Source: a virus (Duplodnaviria; Caudoviricetes). Taken from it: a stretch of 60,771 nucleotides of DNA. Position 1 is the first letter of the stretch. Each line of letters begins with the position of its first letter. Below the pieces are notes generated by a model. It saw nothing but the letters and a program-made list of their open reading frames with translations. It searched no databases and was not told the DNA's origin. The position numbers and the translations under genes are program-made. Below are positions 2,413 to 56,832 of the stretch, one piece after another. Where the stretch lies: positions 1 to 60,771 of the IMG/VR virus record IMGVR_UViG_3300017773_000008. One strand, 5' to 3'.

Positions 2413-2442
2413 AGGGTGACATTAATTTGTCACCCTTTTTTT
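2413..2442 (+). terminator. Rho-independent terminator
   Basis: AGGGTGACA-TTAATT-TGTCACCCT followed by a T tract. Confidence 0.85.
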
Positions 2443-2455
2443 GTGCCTAAATTTT

Positions 2456-2573
2456 GTTAAGGATTCCCTAACATTTTTTGAAACCAGTTATTGTAGTTGC
2501 GTGGAGCATAACTTGTTAGGGCTTCCCTAACACACATTGAAACCAGTTATTGTAGTTGCGTAGAGCCTAATGT
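2456..2573 (+). repeat. Two ~59-bp tandem direct repeats, each starting with the 17-bp palindrome (copies 2 and 3, at 2456 and 2515)
   Basis: GTTA(A/G)GG(A/C)TTCCCTAACA...TTGAAACCAGTTATTGTAGTTGCGT..AGC.TAA present twice. Confidence 0.9.
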
Positions 2574-2940
2574 AACACGCTAAGTGTTTGTTTTTATTGC
2601 AATGTTACAGAATACCCCCCTAATGTTACACAATGTTACATTTATTTTGACCAAAATGTTACATTACGTTTTATGGTAGTTCGTGGTATTTCGTGGTAAG
2701 CAATGATTTGTAGTTATGTCAAAACAGTATTATTTATATATATATATATAATGTAACATTTTTAGAAAATTATACGATAACATTTGAGACGCATGACTTT
2801 GCGTATGTTTGTAACTTTTTTCTATCCATCATTTTGACCCCTTCATAATTTCCTTATTTTTGTTACATTGTGACATTGCTTTATTTTCAATAACTTAGCG
2901 ACCCTACATCTGTTACATTATGTTACATTACGTTACATTA
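2571..2940. repeat. Iteron-like TGTWACA cluster with a central (TA)n tract; putative replication origin
   Basis: TGTWACA at 2571, 2603, 2624, 2634, 2657, 2752, 2861, 2911 and 2921, plus near matches. (TA)n at ~2735-2750. The region is non-coding. Confidence 0.6.
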
Positions 2941-2986
2941 CACTGTTTACCACTACATCTAATTAGAACTAATGAATTTGAGTTAT

Positions 2987-3015
2987 TTGACATAACCTGA
3001 TATCTGTGGTATATT
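2987..3015 (+). promoter_or_regulatory. Strong sigma70-like early promoter
   Basis: TTGACA-N17-TATATT with TG extended -10; an AGGAG RBS follows before ATG 3064. Confidence 0.75.
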
Positions 3016-3063
3016 AGATAATACTCAGAATTATGTCTTTTATACAACAGAGGAGAACAAGTT

Positions 3064-3294
3064 ATGACAGGGCAGTATATCAATACTTTCGTTAGGGAAT
3101 CCCTAACATGTTCGGAATGTGACGCAGAGGTAAATCCAAAGCGTCATGCACTAGGCTACAACGTGTGTCTAGAGTGTGGAGAGATTATGGCACGTGATGT
3201 AAAGCATTGTGTCGTACCTATGCACAAGTCAAACTATACCGTCATCACTCGCAAGAGTGACCTTATCGGTATCAACAACAAGCAACCTAGTTAG
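3064..3294 (+). CDS. Small Zn-finger protein (CxxC...CxxC)
   Basis: CSEC and CLEC motifs and an AGGAG RBS. Contains palindrome copy 4, and its TAG stop lies inside copy 5. Confidence 0.75.
   Translation: MTGQYINTFVRESLTCSECDAEVNPKRHALGYNVCLECGEIMARDVKHCVVPMHKSNYTVITRKSDLIGINNKQPS
3091..3107. repeat. 17-bp palindrome copy 4 (GTTAGGG-AAT-CCCTAAC), intragenic
   Basis: Direct reading. Confidence 0.95.
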
Positions 3295-3306
3295 GGATTC
3301 CCTAAC
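3290..3306. repeat. 17-bp palindrome copy 5 (GTTAGGG-ATT-CCCTAAC)
   Basis: Direct reading; followed by ACAATATAAGGAAA RBS block. Confidence 0.95.
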
Positions 3307-3326
3307 ACAATATAAGGAAAATCATT

Positions 3327-4214
3327 ATGACTGAAGAAAATAAAATTGCAGAAACAATACCGAGCCTTGGTTCAAGTGCTTGGCTCGTAGACGTTGGTGT
3401 ATCTGTCTGGACTGGCAGAAAGCTAGACAAGAAAGCAAGCGAGGAAGTCGAGGCACAGAACAAAGCCAACCCTAATGTGGCGAATGTCCATAAGAAGTTA
3501 TTGGGTAAGTGTGATGAGTTGGTAGCCGTGCAGAAGTTTGTTGCTAATGCTCGTAACATCCATTACTCAATGACATTACCTTGGTCTGATATGGGTATGC
3601 GTCTGGTGACAACACAGATGTTTCCAAAGTATCACAAGCAGATGACCGAGTTTCAACAAGAGTTTGATAACTTGGTTGGTAAGTTCATAGGTGTATATGA
3701 TTGGGCAGTAATCAATGCTCAGACATTACTTGGGGACTTGTACAATTCAGCTAATTACCCAGACAAGAACGAGTTAATACATAAGTTCTCATGGAGAATG
3801 AATTATGTACCTCTGCCAGACGCAGGGGATTTTCGTATTGATATTGGTAACGAAGCACAAGCACAGTTGCAGGAAAGCTACAAGTCTTACTATACAACCA
3901 TGTTTGATAAAGCCAAGTCGGACTTGTCGGATAGACTAATTAAACCTCTGAAGAATATGTCGGAAAGGTTGGACTATGCAGATGATGAGGACAAGAAGAT
4001 ATTTCGTGACACGTTAGTGGATAACGTCATGGATATACTTGACCTCGTTAAGACGTTTGACCACGATACCAAACTGACTGCGACTTGTACGCAGATAGAG
4101 AACGCACTCATGGGTATAACACCTGATGCGTTGCGTGAAGATAGCACACTCCGTGCTGAAACCAAGAAGTCTATTGATGATGCAATCAAGTCGCTCCCGT
4201 CACTCGACTTCTAA
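3327..4214 (+). CDS. Conserved hypothetical helical protein (possibly DUF3150-like), upstream of the AAA/vWA pair
   Basis: 295 aa ORF with AAGGA RBS; the family assignment is from memory and tentative. Confidence 0.6.
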   Translation: MTEENKIAETIPSLGSSAWLVDVGVSVWTGRKLDKKASEEVEAQNKANPNVANVHKKLLGKCDELVAVQKFVANARNIHYSMTLPWSDMGMRLVTTQMFPKYHKQMTEFQQEFDNLVGKFIGVYDWAVINAQTLLGDLYNSANYPDKNELIHKFSWRMNYVPLPDAGDFRIDIGNEAQAQLQESYKSYYTTMFDKAKSDLSDRLIKPLKNMSERLDYADDEDKKIFRDTLVDNVMDILDLVKTFDHDTKLTATCTQIENALMGITPDALREDSTLRAETKKSIDDAIKSLPSLDF

Positions 4215-20082: not shown

Positions 20083-20111
20083 AGTGGCTACTTTCGGGTA
20101 GCCACTTTTTT
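20083..20111 (+). terminator. Rho-independent terminator at the convergence of the two genome arms
   Basis: AGTGGCTAC-TTTCGG-GTAGCCACT followed by a T tract. Confidence 0.85.
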
Positions 20112-23100
20112 AATCAAAGAAGGTATAGTCGTCATTAAAAGAAGAACTTATTTCGTTTATTATATTTTTGTTACGTACAAATACACCGTTATGCTTTGCA
20201 ATGTTTTCAGATGTTTTAATGTGTCGTTTTACAGACCTTTCAATACCTTTTGGAGTTATAATAAGTTTAGGATCTCTTGCACCAAAAGTCCTGTTCCACT
20301 CTACCATTTTTTGTAGTGCTTCTGCCATACCACTTGCATCACCTGTTCGATACGCTCTGTAGTATTGTGTAGTTAAAGTAGTCTTCTTTTTACTAATAGA
20401 CTTGTCAATTCTATTTTTAATATCGTTCTTCTCCATAGTATTAGTATATTCCACAGGAGGAAAACCAAACAACAACCCTGCTAAATCTCCTGTTGTCACG
20501 TCATCAAATATAGGATCGCCACGCCTTGTTTTATACCCCTCTTCTCTTACTCTACCTAGTGCTTTATATACGTTTGCTATACCTGCAGGGAGAAAACTCT
20601 CAATAGCTCGTTGTACATTTATAGTGTCTTTACGTTCACCAAAAGCAGGTAAACCTAAATCTAACGCTCCTCTGTTTATTCTATCTAATGTACCGAAAGC
20701 AGGCCCACCTGCATAATGAAAAAATGATTCTTCAAGTGAAGCATCGCGGTTAAACCTGTTTTCTTGTATTAATAACCCAGTGAGACGTATACGAGTCGCT
20801 ACATCTACACCTGTCATATAATTAACAAGACCCTTATACGTGGGTTCACGGAACTGCCCACGAACTATTGAATCAAAATCCTCATCATCTTCCCCTAAGA
20901 AAGCGTTTGCTATCATCTCTATTGCTCCATAAAGGGGTAGACCTTGAACTCCTGCAAATAACAACGCACTCACATGCACCCCTGCTAACTGTTTAAAAGC
21001 TATGTATCTATCCTCTGGAGGTAATGACTTATCCATAAGTTCTTTTGTAGATTTAAGCATAGTAGAATACATACGCAGTCCATATGTTTTATACATAAAA
21101 GCTACACGACCAAGGTTTTGCTGTGAGTATCTAGGCCCTGTTTCTAAAACTGCACCGCCATTCGTTTCTTGTGTCTGTCTAAGAGCTTTTTCTGCGGCTC
21201 GTTCTGTAGCACCTTCAATTTTGCTTGCAGCTTTAGATACGTCCGCAAAACTTTTCATTTTACCTTTTGGATCTACCTCTTGTCGTAGCGCAAGCTGATA
21301 AGAGGTTAGCAAGGTAACCTGTCTGTTAAAACGTTCCGCCTGATTAAACATCACAGCAGAAAGACTTGTTAGGTTGTCAAGACTCAACACATCCATAACT
21401 CTATCTTTTTTATCTTTTCTACGAGATAAAGCTCCTCCTTCTTCGCCTAAACCTAAAGCGTCTGCTAAGAAAGTTCTTGTTAACTGCCCTCTTTGTGAAG
21501 CTAACTTAATCAAAGGCAATACGGAGTCAGCTATTTCTTTTTGTCTTGGAGATAAATCTCTTTTTACACCATAAGTTTCTATAGAGTCTTTTATTTTGTA
21601 TGTTCTATTTACAGGATCAAAATCAAATAGCTGATCTATATTATTACCTGAGTTTGTAACTATTCTAGTAGCATTGCCTAACGCTCTGCTTGTTTTTACA
21701 AATCCATATTCAGCGCCAAGATAAGGGTAAACAAACAAAGGGACTTGAGATAAGTTAACTAATGCAGAGGAGGCATTAGCACCTATGGTATACACAAATG
21801 CTAACTGATTAGCAGTTTTTACAAATTGCTCTATGCCTTTATAATCTGCTCCCTGTGTAGCAAACTTTGCTCTTCTGTTAAGTTCTTCAGTAATTTTAGA
21901 TATTGCGGGTGCAATTTTTGGGTTTGTTACCTCTAATTCTTTTGCTTTCTTAGTCATGTCTTTTACTATGGCTCGTATATTAGCATTATTTTTTAACTGT
22001 GCTACCTGTCTTCCCAGAGCAAGACCTTTTTTATTAAAAGCAAAAACAGAATCAGGTATGTAACCTTTAACACCTTCTCGTCTTGATAATGATTTTGCAA
22101 AAGAAGTTTCTGGTAACGTGTTTATAAACAACTGCACAATGTCACTTTGTAAATCATCTTTTACTGTTTTATCTAACCCTTGAGCTGCATTGAGTATGTC
22201 CATTACTTGACCAACAAAAGATGTAGGGGGCGCGGTTCTAAAAATCTCTTTTGTTTTGTCAGCGGTGTCAGCCATTTGTATAGTAGTTTGGTCTACATCT
22301 GGATTTTCTTTTAATTCTTCAGCTCTTGTTACTTGTTCTGCTTGCGTGCTTACTAATTCGTATACTCTTGGGTCACCAATGTCTTCACCAGCATCTTTTC
22401 TCTTTTTCATAATTTCTGGTTTTATATTATAAGCCACCACATAATTACCCTCACGAACAAGAGGGAAGTATACATCCAAAGCCTTATTATCAAATATTTT
22501 TTTAAATACGCTTTGTAATCTTTCTGATACTTTTACACCATCCGCGTCAACCTCACCACCTACTGCTTTATCTGCCTGAAGTCCTAGAGCTTCTTGCAGT
22601 TGAGTAAAGTATCTTTTATAGTAGTTACGCATCTCATCAAATGCGTCTCTACCCTGTTGCCCAAAGTCAGGGTTATTCTTCCATATTTTCTGTTGGTCAT
22701 CCCATACTTCTTCTAACTTCCTGTCGCCTATATTTTTATTTTCGTATTCTTTTCTTGGTTTTGTGGGGTCTACCTGATAGATAGTAGCACCGAAACTACG
22801 GCTATATATAAGCTCATCAAGTAAATCTCTTCGTTTTGTATTGTCTTTTAACTTTCGCATAACCTTTGTTTTAACGTCCTCAAAGTCACGCCCTGCAGCA
22901 TCCATGTCTCCACGTTGGTCGTTAAATGCGTTTAATAGCTGCTCTCCAAACCCTACATTGTTGTCATCTACCAAACCTGTTTCGTTAGCCATATTACTAA
23001 CCGTTAACATGTCAGAGAGTCCTGTAAGTATATTTTTAGCCACTGTACCCACTTTAGTATCACCTAAGAAAGATATAGAATCTAATATAAAACCCCTACC

Positions 23101-25938
23101 TTCTTCTTTAGTAAGCTGCCCCTGATCTCTACTATCTTCTGCAATATTCTGTAACGTGTTAGCAGCACCTTCAGGATCAGACGTAGATATTAACGCACCC
23201 GTGCCTACAGCATCTTCGGTGGGAGCTAATAGCTGTGCTATATCCATACTTGCAGACTCAAGAGCTGTAAGAGGTGTAGTGGGTTTACCTATAAGCTGTC
23301 TAAAGAAGTTAACAACTGTATTAGTAAATCGCTGTAAGGCGCTAACAGGTTGTCCTTTAATATTTATACCTGCAAGCATCTTTTGAAACTGTGGATTACT
23401 AAATGTCTCTGATACAAACTCTTGTAAAGACTGTGCGCCATAGGCAGTTCCTAGATTATCTTTAACCTCTTCGAACAACGTGTTAAGTTGTTTTGTTGTG
23501 GGGTGGGACTTGTTAGCCAGGTTAGCAAAGGTAACAGCGTGCGCTGCTTCGTGCATAAGAACATGTGCGTTCATACCACTTTCTGGGTTAATCTCTATTG
23601 TATTTGTAGCACTATCAAACCGACCTGCTAAATTACCAAGATCTTTAACTACTATCTTAACATCTTTCAATACCTCAGACATTTTTTTAGATAGTAGAGA
23701 AAGCGGTTCTGGTAGTTGTGTATCTTCACTTAATTTATTTAATGCACCTTTTGCATCACCCTGTTCTATTAAAGTGTTAACTTCAGGATCTAGACCTATA
23801 GTAAGAGAGGTAACTTCAGAAGAAGGTATAGCTAAATTAACGTCTTTAGCTTTTATTTTTTTATCTACTGCTTTAAATTGTTGTGTTACTTTATTTTTTA
23901 ACTCTTTAAAAGCCGCCTCTTTTTCTTTTATATTTTTAGTTTTGTCCCATCTTGCCTGTAATTTCTCTCGAACTTCAAGATTATCTAAATTATCAATAGC
24001 CGCAAACCAGTTAGAGTTTAACTCATCTATGCTTGCTTGTTCTGCAGTTTTAGTCGGTCTACCTATTATTGTATCTGCACGCTCAGAAAGCTGTTTATCG
24101 GTCATTCTACCTGACCTTGCTTTTGCTATTGCATCGGTCAAATATGTTTTAACATCATCATTTAAATTAGCGTCTACCCATTTTTTAGCCTCTAGTGCAG
24201 CTTCTTTTCCTGTCCCTGCCATTACTGCCGTATATGGACTATCAGCAGCTATTTCGTCAGGACTTCTTTTAAACCCTTTGCTTTCTTGTCCTATATCAAA
24301 AGCTATGGCATCTAGTGCAGCTTGGGGAGTTGGCCCAAAACCTTTAAAATAAATTAGTGCTTTCTCTACAGGTTTTATTATCTGTGTTTTATTTTTTACT
24401 TTTTTTGATTTAGGTACTTTACCCTCTATTAGATTAGTTAAAGCCTTTTTATCTTCTACAGTTGTTTTATCATCTTGTAACACGTCTCCCTCTGCCACCG
24501 TCACTGCTTCTGGACTAGCATTGGTTTCAAATGCAACTCTATATTCTTCTAGTGCATCTGTGTCTCTTTTAGCGCCTACTTCACCTGTTAAAGTATTCAT
24601 TAGCTCCGATAATGGGTTTGTTTCGGTGTCTTTCACTACAGGTTTAGGCTCTTTTAAAGCATCTGCTTTCTCTCTTGCGTAACGCCCTAGTATTTGTTGT
24701 CTTTCACTTCTTTTTTCTTCTGTTAACTTTCTTTTTTCTTTTGTATCTGCCGCAGCAAAAAGTGGCTTATATTTTTCTTCTATAGCATCTAGCTCTGCGG
24801 ATTCTTTAGCCTTTAAATCTGCTGTTATAGGTTTAAGCTCATCTACTTTAGCAACTTCAACCTTAGATGGTTCAGGGCCAACTTCTACACTATCTGTAGC
24901 AGCGAGCGTAGTGTCTTTACCTGCTACCTCATCTGCGGCTTTACGAGCTTCTTCAGTAACGGGTGCATCAGTAGTTATTTTTTCTATATCATCTACTATT
25001 TTATCTGCTGCTACATCAGACTCCACAGGTGCAACAGTCGTAGGTGCGCTGCCTCCACGAGTTCGTGGGGTAATCATTTGTATGGCTCTATAGATTTCAT
25101 CAGCTAGTTTGGCTGTAAAACCAACTGCACTGCCATATGCTGCAGGCTCTCCTGTCTCCTCAAGTAATGTTTGTTCTAGATTATACCCTCGCTCAACTGC
25201 ATTTTGTGCTACAGCTGCAGCAAATTCTTGCGCTCCTTCTACACCAGCCTCAGTAAGCACCCGCCTGCCTCTGGCTAATATACCACCTGCTGTTTCATCA
25301 CCAAAAAAGTTACCCGCTTTATTTAAAAGAGGAAATTTTCTAAGTAGTCTTAATGGAGTTATAATTTCAGAAAGTCCTATTGCAGCTCCAAATTTTGCAG
25401 CTCTATTTCTTTCTTCTTGTGTTGCATCTTCTTCTCTTGCACGTTCACTAGCCTCACCTGCACCTGCACCTACAGCTAACGATGCTGCAATACCTGGCCC
25501 TACAAAAGGAATTGCCGCGGGAGCAAGAATACCTGCAAAAGAACCAAGTGCTTCACCAAACTTACGAGGTACAGCTGATGCCCCTATACCTATATTTGCA
25601 TCAGGTGCAACAGCTTCTTGTACAACATCTCCAACACTTTGTATTTTTTCTCTTAGTGCAAGTTCTGTTTCTTCCCCAAAAGGAGTAATAGCACCAAGAG
25701 CCGCAGTTTCAACTAACCCTGCAAGTCCACCTACTGTACCTTTACCAAGCTCTTGTATCTGGTCTATTATAGTTCCAGGTCTAGCCATAGCTTGCAGCTC
25801 CCCAGCCCGTGCTAAAGCAGCATAGGGGTCTTGTTTTTTAGCTAGATGTATATCAACAAGTTCTCTTGTAGTGGCCCCCTCTGGCCCTTCTACTTGTACT
25901 GGTGTGCCATCTTTTTTGTATATCGTATATGTACGCAT
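20110..25938 (-). CDS. Giant internal virion/ejection protein with a zincin-like HExxH domain (large polyvalent protein type)
   Basis: 1942 aa; GRFDSATNTIEIN...VLMHEAAHA...LQEFVSE; last gene of the late arm. Confidence 0.75.
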   Translation of the reverse strand: MRTYTIYKKDGTPVQVEGPEGATTRELVDIHLAKKQDPYAALARAGELQAMARPGTIIDQIQELGKGTVGGLAGLVETAALGAITPFGEETELALREKIQSVGDVVQEAVAPDANIGIGASAVPRKFGEALGSFAGILAPAAIPFVGPGIAASLAVGAGAGEASERAREEDATQEERNRAAKFGAAIGLSEIITPLRLLRKFPLLNKAGNFFGDETAGGILARGRRVLTEAGVEGAQEFAAAVAQNAVERGYNLEQTLLEETGEPAAYGSAVGFTAKLADEIYRAIQMITPRTRGGSAPTTVAPVESDVAADKIVDDIEKITTDAPVTEEARKAADEVAGKDTTLAATDSVEVGPEPSKVEVAKVDELKPITADLKAKESAELDAIEEKYKPLFAAADTKEKRKLTEEKRSERQQILGRYAREKADALKEPKPVVKDTETNPLSELMNTLTGEVGAKRDTDALEEYRVAFETNASPEAVTVAEGDVLQDDKTTVEDKKALTNLIEGKVPKSKKVKNKTQIIKPVEKALIYFKGFGPTPQAALDAIAFDIGQESKGFKRSPDEIAADSPYTAVMAGTGKEAALEAKKWVDANLNDDVKTYLTDAIAKARSGRMTDKQLSERADTIIGRPTKTAEQASIDELNSNWFAAIDNLDNLEVREKLQARWDKTKNIKEKEAAFKELKNKVTQQFKAVDKKIKAKDVNLAIPSSEVTSLTIGLDPEVNTLIEQGDAKGALNKLSEDTQLPEPLSLLSKKMSEVLKDVKIVVKDLGNLAGRFDSATNTIEINPESGMNAHVLMHEAAHAVTFANLANKSHPTTKQLNTLFEEVKDNLGTAYGAQSLQEFVSETFSNPQFQKMLAGINIKGQPVSALQRFTNTVVNFFRQLIGKPTTPLTALESASMDIAQLLAPTEDAVGTGALISTSDPEGAANTLQNIAEDSRDQGQLTKEEGRGFILDSISFLGDTKVGTVAKNILTGLSDMLTVSNMANETGLVDDNNVGFGEQLLNAFNDQRGDMDAAGRDFEDVKTKVMRKLKDNTKRRDLLDELIYSRSFGATIYQVDPTKPRKEYENKNIGDRKLEEVWDDQQKIWKNNPDFGQQGRDAFDEMRNYYKRYFTQLQEALGLQADKAVGGEVDADGVKVSERLQSVFKKIFDNKALDVYFPLVREGNYVVAYNIKPEIMKKRKDAGEDIGDPRVYELVSTQAEQVTRAEELKENPDVDQTTIQMADTADKTKEIFRTAPPTSFVGQVMDILNAAQGLDKTVKDDLQSDIVQLFINTLPETSFAKSLSRREGVKGYIPDSVFAFNKKGLALGRQVAQLKNNANIRAIVKDMTKKAKELEVTNPKIAPAISKITEELNRRAKFATQGADYKGIEQFVKTANQLAFVYTIGANASSALVNLSQVPLFVYPYLGAEYGFVKTSRALGNATRIVTNSGNNIDQLFDFDPVNRTYKIKDSIETYGVKRDLSPRQKEIADSVLPLIKLASQRGQLTRTFLADALGLGEEGGALSRRKDKKDRVMDVLSLDNLTSLSAVMFNQAERFNRQVTLLTSYQLALRQEVDPKGKMKSFADVSKAASKIEGATERAAEKALRQTQETNGGAVLETGPRYSQQNLGRVAFMYKTYGLRMYSTMLKSTKELMDKSLPPEDRYIAFKQLAGVHVSALLFAGVQGLPLYGAIEMIANAFLGEDDEDFDSIVRGQFREPTYKGLVNYMTGVDVATRIRLTGLLIQENRFNRDASLEESFFHYAGGPAFGTLDRINRGALDLGLPAFGERKDTINVQRAIESFLPAGIANVYKALGRVREEGYKTRRGDPIFDDVTTGDLAGLLFGFPPVEYTNTMEKNDIKNRIDKSISKKKTTLTTQYYRAYRTGDASGMAEALQKMVEWNRTFGARDPKLIITPKGIERSVKRHIKTSENIAKHNGVFVRNKNIINEISSSFNDDYTFFD

Positions 25939-45992: not shown

Positions 45993-46433
45993 CTATGCAA
46001 TACGTATAATAGCAGTTGTATCAGATGCCGTAGGAAACGCAACTTTAAACGTGCTATTACTTGATGACTTATCTGCTCCAAAGTCTAATACTGCAACTGC
46101 AGGATTAGTGCCTCCAGACTTATAAATTAAAGCCCCCCTCGCTGTTATAGTAGAACTCGACCACGTAGTGTCTGAAAAATCAAGATACGCAATAGTGCCA
46201 GAAGTATCACTTTTAGGTGCTGTACCAATGGTTAACGTGTTACCACCTGCTGTATAACCTGTCCCACTAGTTTCGTTAGTTGTTGAATACACAGTGGTAG
46301 TAGCATCTAAAGTAGCACTAGATGTGTATAACGCTATTTTAAATGATTGAGATGTATCACTACTAAAGTCCATCTCCCCGTTTAAAAGAGCAATTTTAAA
46401 AGAAGTACACAAATAATTACCAGTAAACGCCAT
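45993..46433 (-). CDS. Virion structural protein
   Basis: CTSFK..LL...FKIALYTSSA...GYTAGG...ITARGALIY..VAVLDFG. Confidence 0.7.
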   Translation of the reverse strand: MAFTGNYLCTSFKIALLNGEMDFSSDTSQSFKIALYTSSATLDATTTVYSTTNETSGTGYTAGGNTLTIGTAPKSDTSGTIAYLDFSDTTWSSSTITARGALIYKSGGTNPAVAVLDFGADKSSSNSTFKVAFPTASDTTAIIRIA

Positions 46434-47077
46434 TAACCAGCACCTTGTCCCAACGGCCCAGATCTATAACTATCTTGCCTTAATTTACCATCTACAGAAT
46501 TTTTTAATAATGTTATAGAATGTAAATACATTTTTTCATAATTTTGTATAATGTCAGGTTCACCTTTTTGGAATCTTATTGCTTCTACCAATGCTCCATT
46601 TAACAGCGCGGTGTCAAAATTATCCCCTAAATAAGTACCACCTGCGGTGACTATGGAGGTAGGATATTTAGCATATATATGTTCTATTTCATAATTTTGG
46701 TCTGGGGTTGGGGCGAACATTAATTTTACATTAGACCCCGAAGTGCTATGATAAGCATAAAATTTAGGTAGCCCATACTTAGCACTTGTATTTACAGGGT
46801 AAGCATCTCGTAAAAAATTAACATCTTTATTTAATAAATAGTTAGTAGTGCTACTGCTTATTACCGCTATACTATACGTGTGCAAATACCCGTCAGGCGT
46901 TGTATACAGTTTATTAGTGGCTGTAAGAGGGCCACTATCTACAGTACGCATAGATGGTAGTTCAACAGTATTAAATATTTTTTGCTCTGCCTGTTGTGTA
47001 AACATAGCAAGCTGATCGTCTGAAAAACTGGTTTCACATATATCTTCAATATTTGTTTTTAAGTTAGTATAATTCAT
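46433..47077 (-). CDS. Head-tail adaptor-like protein
   Basis: MNYTNLK..I...FTQQAE.KI, APTPD, ALLNGALVEA. Confidence 0.65.
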   Translation of the reverse strand: MNYTNLKTNIEDICETSFSDDQLAMFTQQAEQKIFNTVELPSMRTVDSGPLTATNKLYTTPDGYLHTYSIAVISSSTTNYLLNKDVNFLRDAYPVNTSAKYGLPKFYAYHSTSGSNVKLMFAPTPDQNYEIEHIYAKYPTSIVTAGGTYLGDNFDTALLNGALVEAIRFQKGEPDIIQNYEKMYLHSITLLKNSVDGKLRQDSYRSGPLGQGAG

Positions 47078-47424
47078 GTTGTCACCGTTACTTCACCTAC
47101 TGCACTTACAGCTTCTAGTCTGTTGGTTCTTAACCCATAAATATTTTTACCATCTCCAACTGGATCCCAACCCCATTGTGTATTTCTACTACTAGGATAC
47201 CCTGCAAAATCAGGTCGTGGATCACGTACAGCTTGCGGGTCTCTAACAGGATATAAACCTAATTTATTCTGCGGATGGTCTGGACTAAAACATTGCGGAC
47301 AAGCCTTTAAATTTGTATTCCTACCTCTTGTAATTATGTTTCGTAGCTGTCGCAGTTTAAAACGAAACCCACATATATCACATTCGGCTATTACTTTTTT
47401 ACTAGAAGCAAAGGGTACAGTCAT
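47074..47424 (-). CDS. Zn-finger protein
   Basis: ECDICGF...CPQC..DHPQ...DPRPD. Confidence 0.7.
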   Translation of the reverse strand: MTVPFASSKKVIAECDICGFRFKLRQLRNIITRGRNTNLKACPQCFSPDHPQNKLGLYPVRDPQAVRDPRPDFAGYPSSRNTQWGWDPVGDGKNIYGLRTNRLEAVSAVGEVTVTT

Positions 47425-47426
47425 TT

Positions 47427-47666
47427 TTACCTCATTTTACACTTTCTTATGCCTTTTTTAGCAACACCTGATCCACGAACTTTACGTCCCTTCTTATACT
47501 TCAAAGCTACACCCTCGGCAAACTCGTTATCAATACCTAATTCTATTAAATCTTTTCTACCTTTTCTCTTTAAATACTCTTCAAAACTTTCGTCCATCCT
47601 AGAGTAACGTTTAAAATCTTCTCTTAAATTTTGAGCGTCTATGTCTAAATCACTAACCCCACCCAT
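47427..47666 (-). CDS. Small protein with a basic C-terminal tag
   Basis: Ends YKKGRKVRGSGVAKKGIRKCKMR. Confidence 0.65.
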   Translation of the reverse strand: MGGVSDLDIDAQNLREDFKRYSRMDESFEEYLKRKGRKDLIELGIDNEFAEGVALKYKKGRKVRGSGVAKKGIRKCKMR

Positions 47667-47668
47667 AA

Positions 47669-48358
47669 TTATATCCTCCCTATTCTTGGCACAAAACGTT
47701 CAGATGTCTTTTCTCTGTCTTCACCTGCCGCTAAGTTATACTGCTCATCATAAGTTGCTTTTAGCATTTCTACTCTAGTTACTAGTTCAGGTACTTTCAT
47801 AGCTATATAATATGCTAATCCTGCTACTAAACACGGCAAAAAACGGAAGTTCATATCCGCTGTTTCCACACCATTACCCGCATCTTCTATCCTACGTAAC
47901 CTCCAATATACAAATGTATATGTTTGTGAATCATCAGGCACAGGCCAAAGATTTATACGTGGAGCAGTTAATAACCTTTCAATCCACACCTGAAGAGGTC
48001 TACCCTGTGTTAACTTGTTTGGGATAGCCGCGTAGCTACTCACACCTATACGACTTATGGTAAGATCAGATTGTGTAGAAGTATTACCTGCGTTTGTTCT
48101 AATAACATGGTCTAAAAGGTCTATGGTATCTGCAGGTAAAGTATATTGTGATGTACCTGCTGTAAGAGTTTGAGTGCCACTATCAATAGTCCACAGGTTT
48201 AAACCTCTGTTTTGCCACTCAATAGTTAATAGATTCATAGACCTACGGGCAGTTCTTAGATCGTATCCAGAACGCATTTCACGACCTGCACGCTCCCACG
48301 CTTCTTCAGCGATCTCCGTGAAGTCCATGTCAAATGCTGTTGTACCCGAAGTAGCCAT
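47669..48358 (-). CDS. Head completion / tail adaptor-like structural protein
   Basis: MATSGT..F...IAEEAWER...RSMNLL..EWQNRGLNLW. Confidence 0.65.
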   Translation of the reverse strand: MATSGTTAFDMDFTEIAEEAWERAGREMRSGYDLRTARRSMNLLTIEWQNRGLNLWTIDSGTQTLTAGTSQYTLPADTIDLLDHVIRTNAGNTSTQSDLTISRIGVSSYAAIPNKLTQGRPLQVWIERLLTAPRINLWPVPDDSQTYTFVYWRLRRIEDAGNGVETADMNFRFLPCLVAGLAYYIAMKVPELVTRVEMLKATYDEQYNLAAGEDREKTSERFVPRIGRI

Positions 48359-48361
48359 GTT

Positions 48362-48862
48362 TTACACCATCTTACACTTTCTTATGCCTTTTCTAGCAAT
48401 GCCTGCCCCTCGAACTTTACCACCTTTTTTAAAATTTCTTTTTAACGTCCCTCTGCCAGCATATGGGCCTTCATATTCTTCTTGGTAGTTAGTCATACCT
48501 CTACCTGGGGTTAACCCACCCATACCTGGTTCTATGGCTCGTGGATCTATATTAAACCTTCTACTTCTCATTAATTCATTGGGATCTTTTTTCTCATATA
48601 TCATACGCTGAACTTCAGCAAAATCATCACCAATTTTATCATCTTTTTTTTCTGCTTGTTGTAGTTTTTTCAAATACGTTTTTGGAAATTTCATAGGATC
48701 CCCATATTTATCTTTACGCATTTTATCAAGCAATGCTAATTCTTCTTTAGTTTCAAGAATACCGCTTTTATCTAAATCCGACTTGTTTCCAAGCCTAGCG
48801 GCTGCTTCAGCTTCAATAATTCTTTCGGCTAAAGATTTTTTCTTTTTATTCTTCTCAACCAT
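48362..48862 (-). CDS. Hypothetical protein with a basic C-terminal tag
   Basis: Ends FKKGGKVRGAGIARKGIRKCKMV. Confidence 0.65.
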   Translation of the reverse strand: MVEKNKKKKSLAERIIEAEAAARLGNKSDLDKSGILETKEELALLDKMRKDKYGDPMKFPKTYLKKLQQAEKKDDKIGDDFAEVQRMIYEKKDPNELMRSRRFNIDPRAIEPGMGGLTPGRGMTNYQEEYEGPYAGRGTLKRNFKKGGKVRGAGIARKGIRKCKMV

Positions 48863-48872
48863 TTCTTAGCTC

Positions 48873-49259
48873 CTATATACTAAAATACCCTTTAAAATAG
48901 CCATCGACCTGCTCTAATAGGTCACCTTTAGACTTACGCCTGTCTAACTCTATACCATGTTCTCTCATAAGAGCTTCTAACTGTGCTTTGGTCATGCTTC
49001 CATAATCAGGCACGTCACTAGATTCTTCTACTCCCTCAATAACTTCTTCTACTTCTTCGATAACTGCTTCTACTTCTTCAATTATCTCTTCTGCTTCTTC
49101 AACAGGAGCTGCTTCAGCTTCAACCCCAGATATCATTGCTAGTGCCTCTGCTTCGGTAAATATAGTAGTTTTTACAAGTTTATCGTTTTCGTCCACAACA
49201 TTATAAACAGGGTTGTCGTGAACATCCGTACCTACTTGAACCATTTTTAAATGCGCCAT
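48873..49259 (-). CDS. Acidic protein with a C-terminal Rho-N/HeH-like domain
   Basis: YGSMTKAQLEALMREHGIELDRRKSKGDLL. Confidence 0.6.
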   Translation of the reverse strand: MAHLKMVQVGTDVHDNPVYNVVDENDKLVKTTIFTEAEALAMISGVEAEAAPVEEAEEIIEEVEAVIEEVEEVIEGVEESSDVPDYGSMTKAQLEALMREHGIELDRRKSKGDLLEQVDGYFKGYFSI

Positions 49260-49269
49260 AATTATCTCC

Positions 49270-49524
49270 TTATGTATATAAAGTCTTTTTGCGTCTGTTT
49301 TCCATTATAGCACCACAACCTCGTGCTACGCTCCTCTTACGTCTAGCAAGACCACCACGGCTAAAGTTATCGTCACCTATTTTCATGGTTTCTCCCCTAC
49401 CCTTACCTGTTTTTACTAAGTCTCTTCTACCTTTATTTATAAGGAATTGAGCTTCACTCATACTATCAGAAGCAGAACCCTCATAGTACTCCTCTAATAA
49501 TTCTTCTAAAGTTTCTTCAGCCAT
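49270..49524 (-). CDS. Small hypothetical protein
   Basis: Ends FSRGGLARRKRSVARGCGAIMENRRKKT. Confidence 0.6.
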   Translation of the reverse strand: MAEETLEELLEEYYEGSASDSMSEAQFLINKGRRDLVKTGKGRGETMKIGDDNFSRGGLARRKRSVARGCGAIMENRRKKTLYT

Positions 49525-49792
49525 GTCTTCTTCTCCTTGCAAGCCCGCCTACACGCATTTTTACTGTAGCAGGTTTTGTATTTTTTACTACTGTTTTCCC
49601 TTTTGCTCCAGCCCGTTTCTTTTTCTTAGCAGTGGAGGCCCTCTGCGATTGGCTTAAACTACTGGCTTTACTTCTTGGCAGACACCTGTCTGGGTTCTTT
49701 TTATCTTTAGAAGTCCCACACTTGCCTTTAATTTTGCCGTCCGTACCAATACGAACCCAGTCTTGTTTAACCCAATCTTTAAGAGCGCCCAT
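49517..49792 (-). CDS. Small basic protein
   Basis: LKDWVKQDWV...CG...RCLP..KA. Confidence 0.7.
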   Translation of the reverse strand: MGALKDWVKQDWVRIGTDGKIKGKCGTSKDKKNPDRCLPRSKASSLSQSQRASTAKKKKRAGAKGKTVVKNTKPATVKMRVGGLARRRRHG

Positions 49793-49956
49793 TACTTTTT
49801 CTTCTTCCCTTTAGCCCCTTTTGCATAGTTAGGGTCTTTGCAGTATTTAGAAGCAGCCATATTAGCATAAGCACTGGGATACGTATCGAAAGTGCGTTTT
49901 GCCCACGCTTTACCTGATGGGCAAATTTTACCACCTTTTTTATAATACCTACGCAT
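49792..49956 (-). CDS. Small basic protein (54 aa)
   Basis: Manual translation MRRYYKKGGKICPSGKAWAKRTFDTYPSAYANMAASKYCKDPNYAKGAKGKKKK; TAATG-coupled to the downstream gene. Confidence 0.7.
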   Translation of the reverse strand: MRRYYKKGGKICPSGKAWAKRTFDTYPSAYANMAASKYCKDPNYAKGAKGKKKK

Positions 49957-49958
49957 AA

Positions 49959-50414
49959 CTACCTCATTTTAGTGGGTCTTACACCTTTTTTGGCTATACC
50001 TGAACCACGAACCTTGGCTTTACCTTTTGCCATGCTCTTAGCTTTACCGCCATTTGCCATACCTTTTTTGACCATCTTACCAGCAGCGTAACTTTTTTTC
50101 TTCATCATACCGCCACCAGACATCATTTTAAAATCTTCTCTAGAAATCTTACCATCTTTATTTTTATCTAGTTTAGCCTGATCTCCAACAAGTTTACCTT
50201 TAGAGTAACCTTTCTTAGTCTTACCGCCAGCCATCATTTTCTTAACTTGTTTACCTTTTGCCATACCTTTTTTAACCATCTTGCCAGCAGCCATGCCTTT
50301 TGCCATGCCTTTCTTCTTTACCATTTTACCAGCAGCCATCTTACCTTTACCATCTGCGGCAAATTCAGGAACCATTTTCCCGTCTTTATCCTTAACCATC
50401 TTCATTTTTGCCAT
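49959..50414 (-). CDS. Lys/Met/Gly-rich repeat protein with an EF-hand-like loop and C-terminal tag
   Basis: Start MAKMKMVK after an AGGAG-like RBS; repeated MAxG(K/G) units, LDKNKDGKISREDF, ends VRGSGIAKKGVRPTKMR. Confidence 0.7.
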   Translation of the reverse strand: MAKMKMVKDKDGKMVPEFAADGKGKMAAGKMVKKKGMAKGMAAGKMVKKGMAKGKQVKKMMAGGKTKKGYSKGKLVGDQAKLDKNKDGKISREDFKMMSGGGMMKKKSYAAGKMVKKGMANGGKAKSMAKGKAKVRGSGIAKKGVRPTKMR

Positions 50415-51093
50415 CTTCTTGCTCCTCTTTATATAGATTATTAAAAACACGTTGAGTGTCCCAAACGTATTCGTGATCCTGTTTGGAATGAAAAATATTT
50501 TGATTCGGTCTAAAGTCTGGTGCGCCTTCTCCAGTTTCAAACCACGCAGGGTGTGTAACACGAACCCGATTGTTTGGTAAAGCAACTATGTTACCTGTGT
50601 ATTCTCCTGCGTCTAACAACTCAAGAACATGACTTTGTTTATGTTGGGCAGGATCATCTGCTACTTCACTGTTTGTATAATCAACAGTAAAATAGTATTT
50701 TGCAGGGTAGAACTCTCCATCGACTTTGGCTATCCAAGGAGCAGGAGTTGCTCTGTTTAATACGTAAACTGAGTGGTCGTGTGACATACAATCCCAAGGT
50801 TGTGTCACATGTGTTGGCATGGGTGTAGGCCATTCTTCATAAAACACATCAGCAACTAAAGCAGTTATAGGCATTCTTGCCCACATAGCGCCACCATGAA
50901 CGTTTGGTTCGTCCGTATCATCAGACTCACAGCCAGTAAAAACTACTTGAAAACTGAGACATCTATTCGGCATTGTTGTTACTGCAATCACCATAGCGTG
51001 CAAAAACTCTCCTTGGTAGTCCATAAAATTCTTTGTATATTCTCTTCTTATCCATGCTTTAAAATACGGTATATTACTTTGTAGATACGCCAT
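50392..51093 (-). CDS. Conserved phage protein of unknown function
   Basis: 233 aa; GAMWARMPI, YYFTVDY, QHKQSHVL, ALPNNRVR. Confidence 0.75.
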   Translation of the reverse strand: MAYLQSNIPYFKAWIRREYTKNFMDYQGEFLHAMVIAVTTMPNRCLSFQVVFTGCESDDTDEPNVHGGAMWARMPITALVADVFYEEWPTPMPTHVTQPWDCMSHDHSVYVLNRATPAPWIAKVDGEFYPAKYYFTVDYTNSEVADDPAQHKQSHVLELLDAGEYTGNIVALPNNRVRVTHPAWFETGEGAPDFRPNQNIFHSKQDHEYVWDTQRVFNNLYKEEQEDGKNEDG

Positions 51094-51205: not shown

Positions 51206-51520
51206 CTAGCATCTCCATCTTCTTCTTGCTTGTCGTAAACGACTATTTGGATCTTTTGCAGCTTTTGGGAATTTTTTCATTTGCCCTGCACTTCTAGCGC
51301 AATATGACTTTCTTCTAGACGCTCTTTTACCCGTAGGTTTCTTTTCAGTAACCGCAGTCTTTAACTTAGACCCAGGATTGTTTCTTCTATACTTAGCAAC
51401 GCCTTTAGCAGTCATACCTGCACCAGATTTAGTGGGTCGCTTGTCCCCACTTTTAATAGACATACCCTTCATGCCCGTATCTTTACGGACTTTACGTCCC
51501 TTCTTGTAGTATTCACGCAT
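51206..51520 (-). CDS. Small basic protein
   Basis: GMTAKGVAKYRR.NPGSKL...RRKSYCARS...DPNSR...RRWRC. Confidence 0.75.
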   Translation of the reverse strand: MREYYKKGRKVRKDTGMKGMSIKSGDKRPTKSGAGMTAKGVAKYRRNNPGSKLKTAVTEKKPTGKRASRRKSYCARSAGQMKKFPKAAKDPNSRLRQARRRWRC

Positions 51521-53136: not shown

Positions 53137-53166
53137 AAAAAGGGGCAACCCGCAAGTCGCCCCCTT
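53137..53166 (-). terminator. Rho-independent terminator after the MCP
   Basis: Minus strand AGGGGGCGAC-TTGC-GGGTTGCCCCT-TTTT. Confidence 0.7.
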
Positions 53167-53173
53167 AATTTTT

Positions 53174-54082
53174 TTAAGCTCCTGGTGAGCCAAAGATCCC
53201 TAGTGGATCTGATACACCGAAAGAGTATCTCTCTCTAGCCTTATATCTGCTATTACCTGTATCAAAGTCAGCATCCATAGATGTTGCCATTGGGCTACGT
53301 GTAAAGTGTTTAAGACCGTTAGGTACATCTGTCATCAAGAACCATGCGTCTGTGTCGGTCAAATAGTGATTAACCGCGAACCCTTCAGGAACAGAACTCA
53401 TGCTGCGAATCGCATTGAGGTCGTTATCTGCAGTTGCCACTCTTCCTTCAGTCTGGAGCAAACGAGTTGCCACAAATTGTAGGTCAGAAGGAATAACCAA
53501 CTTACGAGCTTTTGCCGCAATAAGAAGCCCTCGCTCGTCTGTCCAGTTTCCAATCTGAATGATAGCTGCTTCTAAAGAAGTTTCGTTTAGATCAGCTGCA
53601 GTTGCAGGTTCGTTAGAGTTAGTTCCGCCTGAAACTAATGGGTGTGCAGTAGAACAAAGCTCCACTCCATCTCCATAAGTTGTGCCAGAATCAAAAGCAT
53701 TGTTCAAAATAGAAGCTGCTTTAACCTGTTTTGTGTACGCCATAGCACGAGCAAGCGCTTTAGTATAACGAGATGATAAAGAATCATACAAGTTATCCTC
53801 AATAGCCTCTTCAGTAATTGAAAAGCCCATTGCGATTGTCTCATGGTTGTAGCGAGCTGTGAAAGCCTCTTGAGCATTGTCGTATTCGATGGCAGAGCCT
53901 TCGTCTTTGACTGGTGCTGCGGAGAAGCCTGATAGCTTAGTCTCTTCTTCAAAAGAACGATCAGAAGTTTCTGCTTCAAAAATTTCTGCATGTTCCTCAC
54001 CGTACTTTGCATACTCTAAACCGAATAATGCGTTCAAGCCAGGAAGTAGTTCTTTAAGGAGTTGTGCGCGTGAAATAGCCAT
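53174..54082 (-). CDS. Major capsid protein
   Basis: 302 aa; MAISRAQLLKELLPGLNALFG...RYKARERYSFG.SDP, typical of MCPs in this phage type; strong RBS and downstream terminator. Confidence 0.88.
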   Translation of the reverse strand: MAISRAQLLKELLPGLNALFGLEYAKYGEEHAEIFEAETSDRSFEEETKLSGFSAAPVKDEGSAIEYDNAQEAFTARYNHETIAMGFSITEEAIEDNLYDSLSSRYTKALARAMAYTKQVKAASILNNAFDSGTTYGDGVELCSTAHPLVSGGTNSNEPATAADLNETSLEAAIIQIGNWTDERGLLIAAKARKLVIPSDLQFVATRLLQTEGRVATADNDLNAIRSMSSVPEGFAVNHYLTDTDAWFLMTDVPNGLKHFTRSPMATSMDADFDTGNSRYKARERYSFGVSDPLGIFGSPGA

Positions 54083-56648: not shown

Positions 56649-56832
56649 TTTCCATATAATTGCGCGAGAGGTCTTGTATGTGAGACAGACCAGCTTCTAG
56701 ACCCCGTATCAAGCCAGTCGTTTCCTTGTATTGAGAGAAATCTTTTGCTCCCCCTCCAGCAAGAAAATCTTTTGCAGAAACTATATCAGTTTCGATTCTT
56801 TCTTTAAGCACGTCAAAGACGGTTTTAGCCAT
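56635..56832 (-). CDS. Small conserved protein
   Basis: 65 aa; G.AKDFSQYK...GLIRGL; coupled to the portal. Confidence 0.7.
   Translation of the reverse strand: MAKTVFDVLKERIETDIVSAKDFLAGGGAKDFSQYKETTGLIRGLEAGLSHIQDLSRNYMESDDD

Follow-up and report, generated by a model that had tools for sequence, protein, structure and literature searches.

How does a phage come to end several dissimilar proteins in nearly the same short peptide, and what could such a peptide accomplish? The question is raised by a 60,771-nucleotide (nt) stretch of viral DNA (IMG/VR record IMGVR_UViG_3300017773_000008; here called the window, meaning the whole stretch analyzed), in which three genes encode proteins of 79, 166, and 151 amino acids (aa), termed p79, p166, and p151, with near-identical C-terminal tails. 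We refer to the tail as the tag and to the remainder of each protein as its body or passenger. An earlier note on this DNA had proposed that a mobile tag-encoding module recombined onto new passenger open reading frames (ORFs). We favor, with somewhat less than even confidence, the interpretation that the tag is a C-terminal virion-incorporation signal for disordered polycationic cargo.

Each of the three tails described in that note is present on the minus strand and runs up to the stop codon, with the common form K-V-R-G-[SA]-G-[IV]-A-[KR]-K-G-[IV]-R-x-x-K-M-[RV]-stop. A six-frame scan of the window with the strict tag pattern returned exactly three matches, namely p79, p166, and p151, and the looser VARGCGA copy likewise exists, in the small neighboring protein p84 (49273-49524, stop excluded). 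The two DNA strings quoted in the note are exact as well: TTACACTTTCTTATGCCTTTT occurs at 47437 and 48372, ACTTTACGTCCCTTCTT at 47479 and 51489, and for neither string did any of 100 shuffles contain two matches. The 77-nt tag regions are 81% identical between p79 and p166 and 64% identical between p79 and p151. With the tags removed, the bodies of these three proteins possess no significant similarity to one another (BLASTP E 1.3 to 9.6); p79 and p84 alone have in common a short K-G-R-x-D-L motif (E 3.7e-4, BLASTP, tags removed).

To sample the tag family, 86 related viral contigs were collected by way of p166 and the adaptor; together with the window they hold 129 tagged ORFs. Their bodies fall into 26 clusters, the largest of which (63 members) is bound by Lys/Gly/Met low complexity and is not readable as one family. 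A profile of 93 distinct tails (A3) retrieved 442 cluster representatives at E ≤0.001 among 1.84 billion proteins, and a 40-residue profile (A5) retrieved 1931 protein clusters of 71-2000 aa at E ≤0.01 among 8000 scored candidates. The tag subtypes are discrete. Type A reads ..[YFM]-K-K-G-G-K-V-R-G-A-G-I-A-[RKQ]-K-G-V-R-[PK]-[CA]-K-M-R, type B ..K-T-[ST]-G-I-K-[IV]-R-G-T-G-A-A-T-K-G-x-x-A-R-G-P-M-[AG], type C ..R-G-M-G-A-A-T-Q-G-G-K-F.., and type D ..R-G-D-G-I-A-K-R-G-K-T-K-G-R-M-V; the position table underlying types A and B was built on best-scoring matches and overstates their conservation.

Placement of the tag is as regular as its sequence. In all 301 distinct proteins from the loci the tag core ends 6-19 aa from the C-terminus (6-8 aa in 276, 11-13 aa in 21, and 19 aa in 4), and among the best 150 library matches it ends 7 residues (88) or 8 residues (54) from the C-terminus, the other 8 bearing a short basic extension. 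No domain fusion downstream of the tag was seen. Within the collected loci the tag pattern occurs in 142 of 3121 coding-strand ORFs versus 1 of 2771 opposite-strand ORFs. The type-A tag exists in 98 distinct DNA versions, in which the invariant R, G, and A residues are written with every synonymous codon and the stop is TAG (45), TAA (28), or TGA (25). Because the codons vary this freely, selection acts on the peptide, and a conserved DNA or RNA element is ruled out as the explanation.

The tag alone is predicted to be coil (pLDDT, the predicted local distance difference test, of 57), which fits a motif that folds upon a partner. It has no match in Pfam, the PDB, or the literature: solved structures gave no tag match at E values up to 10, the ESM Atlas gave unnamed viral clusters only (scores ≤0.88), and six-letter fragments of the tag gave primer-like literature matches only. 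An mSystems paper on HTVC023P-type phages mentions no such motif, and a literature search on DUF6321, DUF5872, and DUF6496 gave one unrelated paper.

If selection maintains the peptide, what happens to the bodies attached to it? One answer comes from three contigs (L004, L009, and L010) whose flanks are 81-97% identical in DNA to the window. In each, homology ends at the p166 start codon (48859) and restarts at 48434-48440, the first tag codons, with a different body between. The p79 gene is precisely absent from these three contigs and from a fourth, L011. In the window p79 is a mosaic: it contains 77 p166-like nt at 81%, 31 p84-like nt at 81%, 42 nt at 71% from the EF-hand region of p151, of whose loop it holds a degenerate copy (repeat family D6), and 17 exact nt of the DUF6321 gene p104, whose N-terminus (YYKKGRKV...) has them in common with the p79 pre-tag region (repeat family D4). 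The looser ARGCG tail is attached to an acidic body (p84) in the window and to a p54-like cysteine domain in four other loci (L020, L023, L039, and L042).

A second view of body turnover is provided by the slot that p151 occupies beside its conserved neighbor p233 (slot 1). Across a series of 20 distinct slot-1 proteins, as identity of the p233 neighbor declines from 100% to 61%, body identity declines from 100% to 16-20% with lengths of 89-358 aa, and the 18-residue tag retains at least 15 identical positions. The p166 body and its L011 allele produce a marginal protein match (30% over 74 aa, E 0.03), so some passengers may be alleles of a single slot gene that have diverged very far.

This last match also bears on a contrary account, in which there is no functional tag: one old family of fast-evolving disordered paralogues would be constrained at the C-terminal end alone, and its passengers would look unrelated through divergence and low complexity. 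The p79/p84 motif, the inclusion of 63 of the 129 bodies in one low-complexity cluster, and internal GGKV-type repeats would agree with it as well. We nevertheless give it little credence, since the DNA breaks cleanly at both the start codon and the edge of the tag, the same ARGCG tail ends both an acidic body and a cysteine domain, the bodies form as many as 26 clusters, and p79 was gained as a mosaic gene.

The proposal of a mobile tag recombined onto new passengers is therefore borne out in part. The tag is a separable module and recombination occurs at its edge, as the L004, L009, and L010 breakpoints, the p79 mosaic, and the ARGCG tail demonstrate. The word mobile fits less well, because the tag stays in fixed slots beside conserved genes and it is the bodies that are replaced or diverge. 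In short, modules are shuffled and the tag stays in its slot. Neither of the two outcomes that the earlier note had named as speaking against its proposal, simple paralogy or a tag attached always to the same passengers, was observed.

Metagenome contigs carry the exact p79 and p166 sequences in several viral metagenomes, and the exact p79 sequence is bridged. Their summed depth is greater over conserved modules than over bodies, contig depth being unable to rank genes, and five short contigs from an RNA library that lie over the window do not show transcription. A single contig joins the p166 tag region (48430) to the K-rich p151 body (50090), skipping 1659 nt with 35 other letters inserted; this poorly supported joint (one contig, side 25, 90% likeness) could reflect recombination from tag to tag in a relative.

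None of the 63 longer passengers contains a Pfam domain at E ≤0.001, and none of the 120 best longer profile matches has a precomputed Pfam domain. Body composition is 15.4% K, 10.3% G, 9.9% A, 6.9% R, 6.8% P, and 6.1% M, with a median isoelectric point (pI) of 9.9 and only 8 acidic bodies in 134. Lysine-rich and without Pfam domains, they look like cargo or spacer rather than enzymes.

Such chemistry might also point to nucleic acid. The tag could be a nucleic-acid-binding module, an AT-hook-like minor-groove binder or a phosphate clamp, and the tagged proteins could be polycations that condense DNA, either while it is packaged or elsewhere in the infected cell, without any part in addressing. 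We consider this unlikely, even though the tag is very basic, Gly-rich, and predicted coil, the bodies are lysine-rich with a high pI, the front half of the tag (..GGKV..) can appear as many as 4 times within a body, the relative DSL-LC04 has a tag-like motif at an N-terminus, basic extensions behind the tag are tolerated, and the C-terminal segment of a neighboring protein (p128) matches endonuclease VII/Arc-like repressor PHROGs. The invariant G, A, and hydrophobic positions exceed the needs of charge-driven binding, as do two sharp subtypes in fixed slots at a fixed 7- or 8-residue distance from the C-terminus; the tag moreover lacks an R-G-R-P core and matches neither the AT-hook nor any other DNA-binding family in Pfam. 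Tag-bearing genomes measure 60.8-65.0 kb versus 53.0 and 57.6 kb in two tag-less relatives with homologous capsids, a difference that in five genomes only is a weak hint of a counter-ion role and likewise a weak hint in favor of the DNA-binding account.

Where the tag occurs also bears on its partner. The type-A tag was confirmed on at least 294 viral contigs; 72 of 73 new type-A loci (among the best 80) carry homologues of structural genes of the window, the exception being a 1.1-kb fragment. The type-B tag was confirmed on at least 587 viral contigs, and all 74 new type-B loci belong to the same phage group and likewise carry such homologues. No tag lies within 4 kb of the portal gene in 80 loci. 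Across 185,579 prokaryote species, each represented by one genome, the type-A pattern matched 21 times, and no match was confirmed.

Cultured relatives whose loci were read directly reveal a patchy distribution. HTVC023P bears tag variants on three proteins. In Pag-Yong1 a 308-aa Pro/Ala/Arg-rich protein near the adaptor ends in a type-D tail, and the type-B slot holds a variant. The motif in DSL-LC04 is only tag-like, and HTVC027P, CRP-901, and Caulobacter phage RW have no tag. A tblastn search with p166, P0011, and P0019 against 50,697 phage records found no tag, a result in which the low-complexity filter may hide some. Since HTVC027P and CRP-901 possess homologous capsid and adaptor genes and no tag, the system is accessory, as cargo behaves, and confinement of the tag to carriers of one structural gene set favors a phage-encoded partner.

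The same distribution argues against late effectors that never enter the virion and whose tag would bind something conserved in the host, for example ribosome or RNA, the nucleoid, or a protease or secretion receptor. Adjacency of the cluster to p233, a gene of the PHROGs moron/auxiliary class, the accessory nature of the system, and a tag composition presumably like that of the basic extensions of ribosomal proteins would suit such effectors. However, only one phage lineage, in which the structural genes are conserved, carries the tag, though related records list both SAR11 and cyanobacteria as hosts; the tagged genes lie inside a structural operon, tightly coupled to adaptor genes; and the prokaryote genomes searched with the type-A pattern hold no cellular homologue. 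We regard a host target as very improbable.

Coupling to the adaptor genes raises yet another candidate. The tagged proteins could be small neck or tail-channel factors whose tag docks on the adaptor or portal ring, and which, as a plug or lining of the channel, retain the end of the DNA and are the first to be ejected. In every one of the 70 loci (of 74) that show an adaptor214 homologue, a type-B mini-gene lies directly upstream of it; in the window this slot is empty and p79 sits one gene earlier, between adaptor229 and the zinc-ribbon gene Zn116. The p166 stop codon lies 3 nt ahead of the adaptor229 start codon, its tag thus abutting that gene. The T7 record also offers precedents, describing gp6.7 as injected from the virion and gp7.3, a small lysine-rich protein, as needed for infectivity and tail assembly. 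Nonetheless, both adaptor homologues exist in HTVC027P and CRP-901 in the absence of a tagged gene, so the tag is dispensable for neck assembly. The K-rich slot-1 gene keeps company with p233, at a distance of 1.6 kb from adaptor229; among 15 long loci in which the adaptor was located, none has a tagged gene immediately upstream of adaptor229; and the tag profile scores E 25 against gp6.7 and has no match to gp7.3. A neck function for the tagged set therefore seems rather improbable.

Taken together, a conserved peptide, its end position, exchanged disordered bodies, one structural gene set, and a late head-to-tail operon point to a motif that docks on a conserved, phage-encoded structure, which we tentatively read as a virion-incorporation label. 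The tagged genes lie on the late strand between the capsid/cement genes and the adaptors, downstream of a terminator-like hairpin behind the capsid gene. In the mechanism we propose, the tag would be a short linear motif, C-terminal and portable, that serves as an address label and docks unrelated, intrinsically disordered, polycationic proteins on a conserved component of the assembling virion, for which the inner capsid face, the scaffold, and the portal/adaptor complex are candidates; the capsid protein in particular is a candidate tag receptor. The tagged proteins would be carried in the particle beside or within the DNA and would probably leave with it, and the lysine-rich bodies could serve as DNA counter-ions and/or as co-injected DNA-coating or anti-defense cargo, roles that would explain their freedom to vary. 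We infer the presence in the virion of the tagged proteins, the target bound by the tag, and the function of the cargo from these features of the genes. A bolder version, which we hold as doubtful, is that a capsid 'zip code' loads ever-changing disordered polycations that neutralize DNA charge and are injected as a DNA-coating or anti-defense shield, and that the tag DNA doubles as a recombination joint for the trade of cargo.

Several points weigh against incorporation into the virion. No virion proteome of a tag-bearing phage was found, the HTVC023P preprint (10.1101/2019.12.14.876532) yielding nothing on proteomics. The tag profile is unlike the C-terminal capsid-binding-type motif of the scaffold (hhalign probability 0.2%), and Pfam and PHROGs scans of the genome found no prohead protease or cleavage site. 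The region holds p233, whose moron/auxiliary class makes late non-structural products possible. A free C-terminus is not strictly required, given the N-terminal tag-like motif of DSL-LC04 and basic extensions of up to 12 residues past the usual tag end. Lastly, so basic and Gly-rich a peptide might have nucleic acid as its target and nothing else.

A protease cut site at the Gly-Gly preceding K-V-R-G was also considered and rejected. No cysteine protease was detected by Pfam or PHROGs, type B and p151 lack the Gly-Gly, and the hydrophobic residue stands one place too far from it for an adenain-like cut site.

Features of the late region are collected in Table 1.

Table 1. Tagged genes of the window, their neighbors, and conserved structural genes (positions are those of the window).
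Feature	Position	Strand	Description	Match or remark
p79	47427..47666	-	79 aa; acidic/basic body; type-A tag in last 23 aa (47430-47498)	ends ...KVRGSGVAKKGIRKCKMR
p166	48362..48862	-	166 aa; type-A tag in last 23 aa (48365-48433)	ends ...KVRGAGIARKGIRKCKMV
p151	49959..50414	-	Lys/Gly/Met-rich repeats (31% K+R); tag core is last 18 aa (49962-50015)	ends ...KVRGSGIAKKGVRPTKMR
p84	49270..49524	-	acidic N-terminus; GGLARRKR motif; degenerate tag ..VARGCGA.. (last ~20 aa, 49273-49332)	paralogue of p79 (E 3.7e-4); repeat family D7
p54	49792..49956	-	small basic cysteine-domain protein	phrog_27331
p91	49517..49792	-	basic protein; ends in GGLARRRR (module also in p84)	phrog_23735
p104	51206..51520	-	DUF6321 protein	PF19846, E 2.3e-13, residues 34-102; 51 bits vs cut-off 28.5
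p233	50392..51093	-	conserved acidic protein	PHROGs class moron/auxiliary; 1147 relatives, all unnamed
Major capsid protein	53174..54082	-	HK97-type; acidic (15% D+E)	82-99% conserved across clade
adaptor229	47669..48358	-	SU10-adaptor-like head-tail adaptor	PF24175, E 3.4e-12; directly downstream of p166 tag
Zn116	47074..47424	-	zinc-ribbon protein between both adaptor genes	synteny conserved
adaptor214	46433..47077	-	second SU10-adaptor-like gene	PF24175, E 6.4e-17

Among the neighbors of the tagged genes, p54 begins with Y-Y-K-K-G-G-K, a motif also found just before the tag, and a 23-nt segment of p54 is 91% identical to the p166 pre-tag region (repeat family D8). No Pfam or PHROG match was found for p166. 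Residues 81-98 of p151 (50121-50174, minus strand) form a canonical-looking EF-hand calcium loop, D-K-N-K-D-G-K-I-S-R-E-D-F, with EF-hand Pfam matches just under the cut-offs. DUF6321 (PF19846) is matched by p104 only and by none of the tagged proteins. It stands alone in p104 and in several PHROGs matches the C-terminal end of much larger proteins (336-928 profile positions), and it may be a second portable end-module.

The p233 gene, the end of which overlaps the p151 start by 23 nt, is followed directly by the K-rich tagged gene in most loci, and in two of them (L017 and L018) the pair sits after the adaptor genes. Its AlphaFold2 model has a pLDDT of 39, its PHROGs label 'ferredoxin' is without Pfam support, and its relatives P0230 and P0247 are fused to DUF6321. 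In HTVC023P the same place is taken by gp44, which is labeled 'PurM' without Pfam support and is a positional counterpart of p233. The p128 protein (48873-49259, minus strand) contains 25% D+E and is thus strongly acidic. The PHROGs annotated as endonuclease VII and Arc-like repressor are matched in their C-terminal part by its own C-terminal segment, which by eye resembles a SAP/HeH-type DNA-binding motif.

The window is probably a complete, circularly permuted 60.8-kb (60,771 bp) genome of a marine podovirus of the HTVC023P type. Completeness and permutation are indicated by the large-terminase ORF, which leaves at position 1 and re-enters from the other end (1-963 and 60130-60771, minus strand), its nuclease domain being the piece at 60130-60666. 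A podovirus late operon occupies the minus strand between about 60 kb and 20 kb and is read in the order portal (56832-59225), GroES-like protein, scaffold-like p353, the HK97-type capsid protein, cement-like p301 and p200, about ten small very basic proteins, two SU10-adaptor-like proteins, fiber, lysis, and very large internal-type proteins. Directly after the capsid gene lies a strong terminator-like hairpin (53139-53166, minus strand; 12 pairs and then a T run), which suggests that only part of the transcription continues into the cement, basic-cluster, and adaptor genes. The paralogous adaptor genes, together with the zinc-ribbon gene between them, form one neck module conserved clade-wide, and adaptor229 has at least 599 related stretches.

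Two further parts of the operon deserve description. A 301-aa gene between terminase and portal (59225-60133, minus strand) has a counterpart in only one other contig and is a lineage-specific insertion, because 46 of 48 relatives whose sequence could be read have the terminase directly before the portal. The gene product terminates in ..GGIASIRK.., which resembles the tag only vaguely, and membership in the tagged family was rejected. The C-terminal half of a 1942-aa protein (20110-25938, minus strand) matches the ends of PHROGs with 2434-3431 profile positions and no assigned function. This protein and its 1312-, 576-, 394-, and 277-aa neighbors probably constitute an internal/ejection protein set.

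The closest cultured relatives are Pag-Yong1-type phages (capsid 70% identical), the Pelagibacter phages HTVC023P and HTVC027P, DSL-LC04, and the roseophages CRP-901 and CRP-902. Records OQ594354.1, OL906435.1, and PP438419.1 are each 65,014 bp with identical match statistics, and their hosts are filed as Synechococcus, Planktothrix, and Planktothricoides. HTVC023P/vSAG 37-F6-type pelagiphages are reported to be the most abundant known marine viral group (10.1101/2019.12.14.876532), ocean viral metaproteomes are reportedly dominated by capsid proteins of this type (PMC5490008), and in HTVC023P-type phages 17% of ORFs are assigned and about four fifths of genes are without an assigned function (10.1101/2019.12.14.876532).

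The tag thus provides a handle on a large block of genes without an assigned function, amounting to 1931 protein clusters at E ≤0.01 in one search. If it is a loading signal, it marks which uncharacterized proteins enter SAR11-type cells with the genome, accounts for the hypervariable region, supplies a tool to package foreign proteins in marine phage particles, and gives the T4 cargo principle a C-terminal counterpart in podoviruses. If it binds DNA instead, it is a new small DNA-binding motif, and if the 'zip code' version is true, an undescribed podovirus cargo system is at hand. T4 already provides a case of variable phage cargo with an address tag; a C-terminal, podoviral, and very widespread version is not described in the sources searched.

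How, then, does the tag compare with known systems? Like the C-terminal helix-turn-helix of P22-type scaffolds, which binds coat protein, it is a basic C-terminal element, and the scaffold-like p353 ends in a conserved ..IAKRLGVP..YAK.. with slight by-eye likeness to ..IARKGVRP... Mimicry of the scaffold by the tag was nevertheless rejected, since hhalign of profile A3 against the scaffold profile A8 aligned 1 column at a probability of 0.2%. The scaffold motif, unlike the tag, is conserved in HTVC027P and in DSL-LC04, neither of which bears a C-terminal tag, and persists in looser form in tag-less CRP-901. AT-hooks of the HMGA type are likewise short, basic, Gly/Pro-containing, portable motifs on disordered proteins, whereas the tag is bound to the C-terminus and reads G-[VTI]-R-[PKA] (type A) or A-R-G-P (type B) instead of R-G-R-P. 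T7 gp6.7 and gp7.3 are also small podovirus proteins encoded beside the portal gene, but each T7 gene is single and not part of a variable set. To our knowledge, no common tag exists among T7 proteins. The family of gp6.7 is DUF5476, and no Pfam match of p79, p166, or p151 exceeds a curated cut-off.

Two systems come nearer. The capsid targeting sequence (CTS) of T4 lies at the N-terminus of its cargo and is removed by the prohead protease. As in our phage group, one short peptide marks otherwise unrelated, variable, mostly basic proteins encoded with head genes (IPI, IPII, IPIII, and Alt in T4). The literature describes the T4 internal proteins as diverse, with only the CTS in common, the CTS as an encapsidation signal, and cargo lysines as contacting DNA (PMC3012670). 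In contrast to the CTS, the present tag is C-terminal, podoviral, of unrelated sequence, and only a putative encapsidation signal, and neither an N-terminal position in the window nor a protease family in the genome scans was found. Encapsulin cargo-loading peptides are short, C-terminal, and rich in small residues, occur on unrelated cargo, and bind the inner face of an HK97-fold shell. The tag matches them in its extreme C-terminal location, with the core 6-19 aa from the end in 301 of 301 proteins, and differs in its consensus, its far more basic character, and a shell that is a DNA-filled phage capsid. By analogy, the T4 CTS may be taken as the closest working model for the tag, and the encapsulin peptides as its closest C-terminal analogue.

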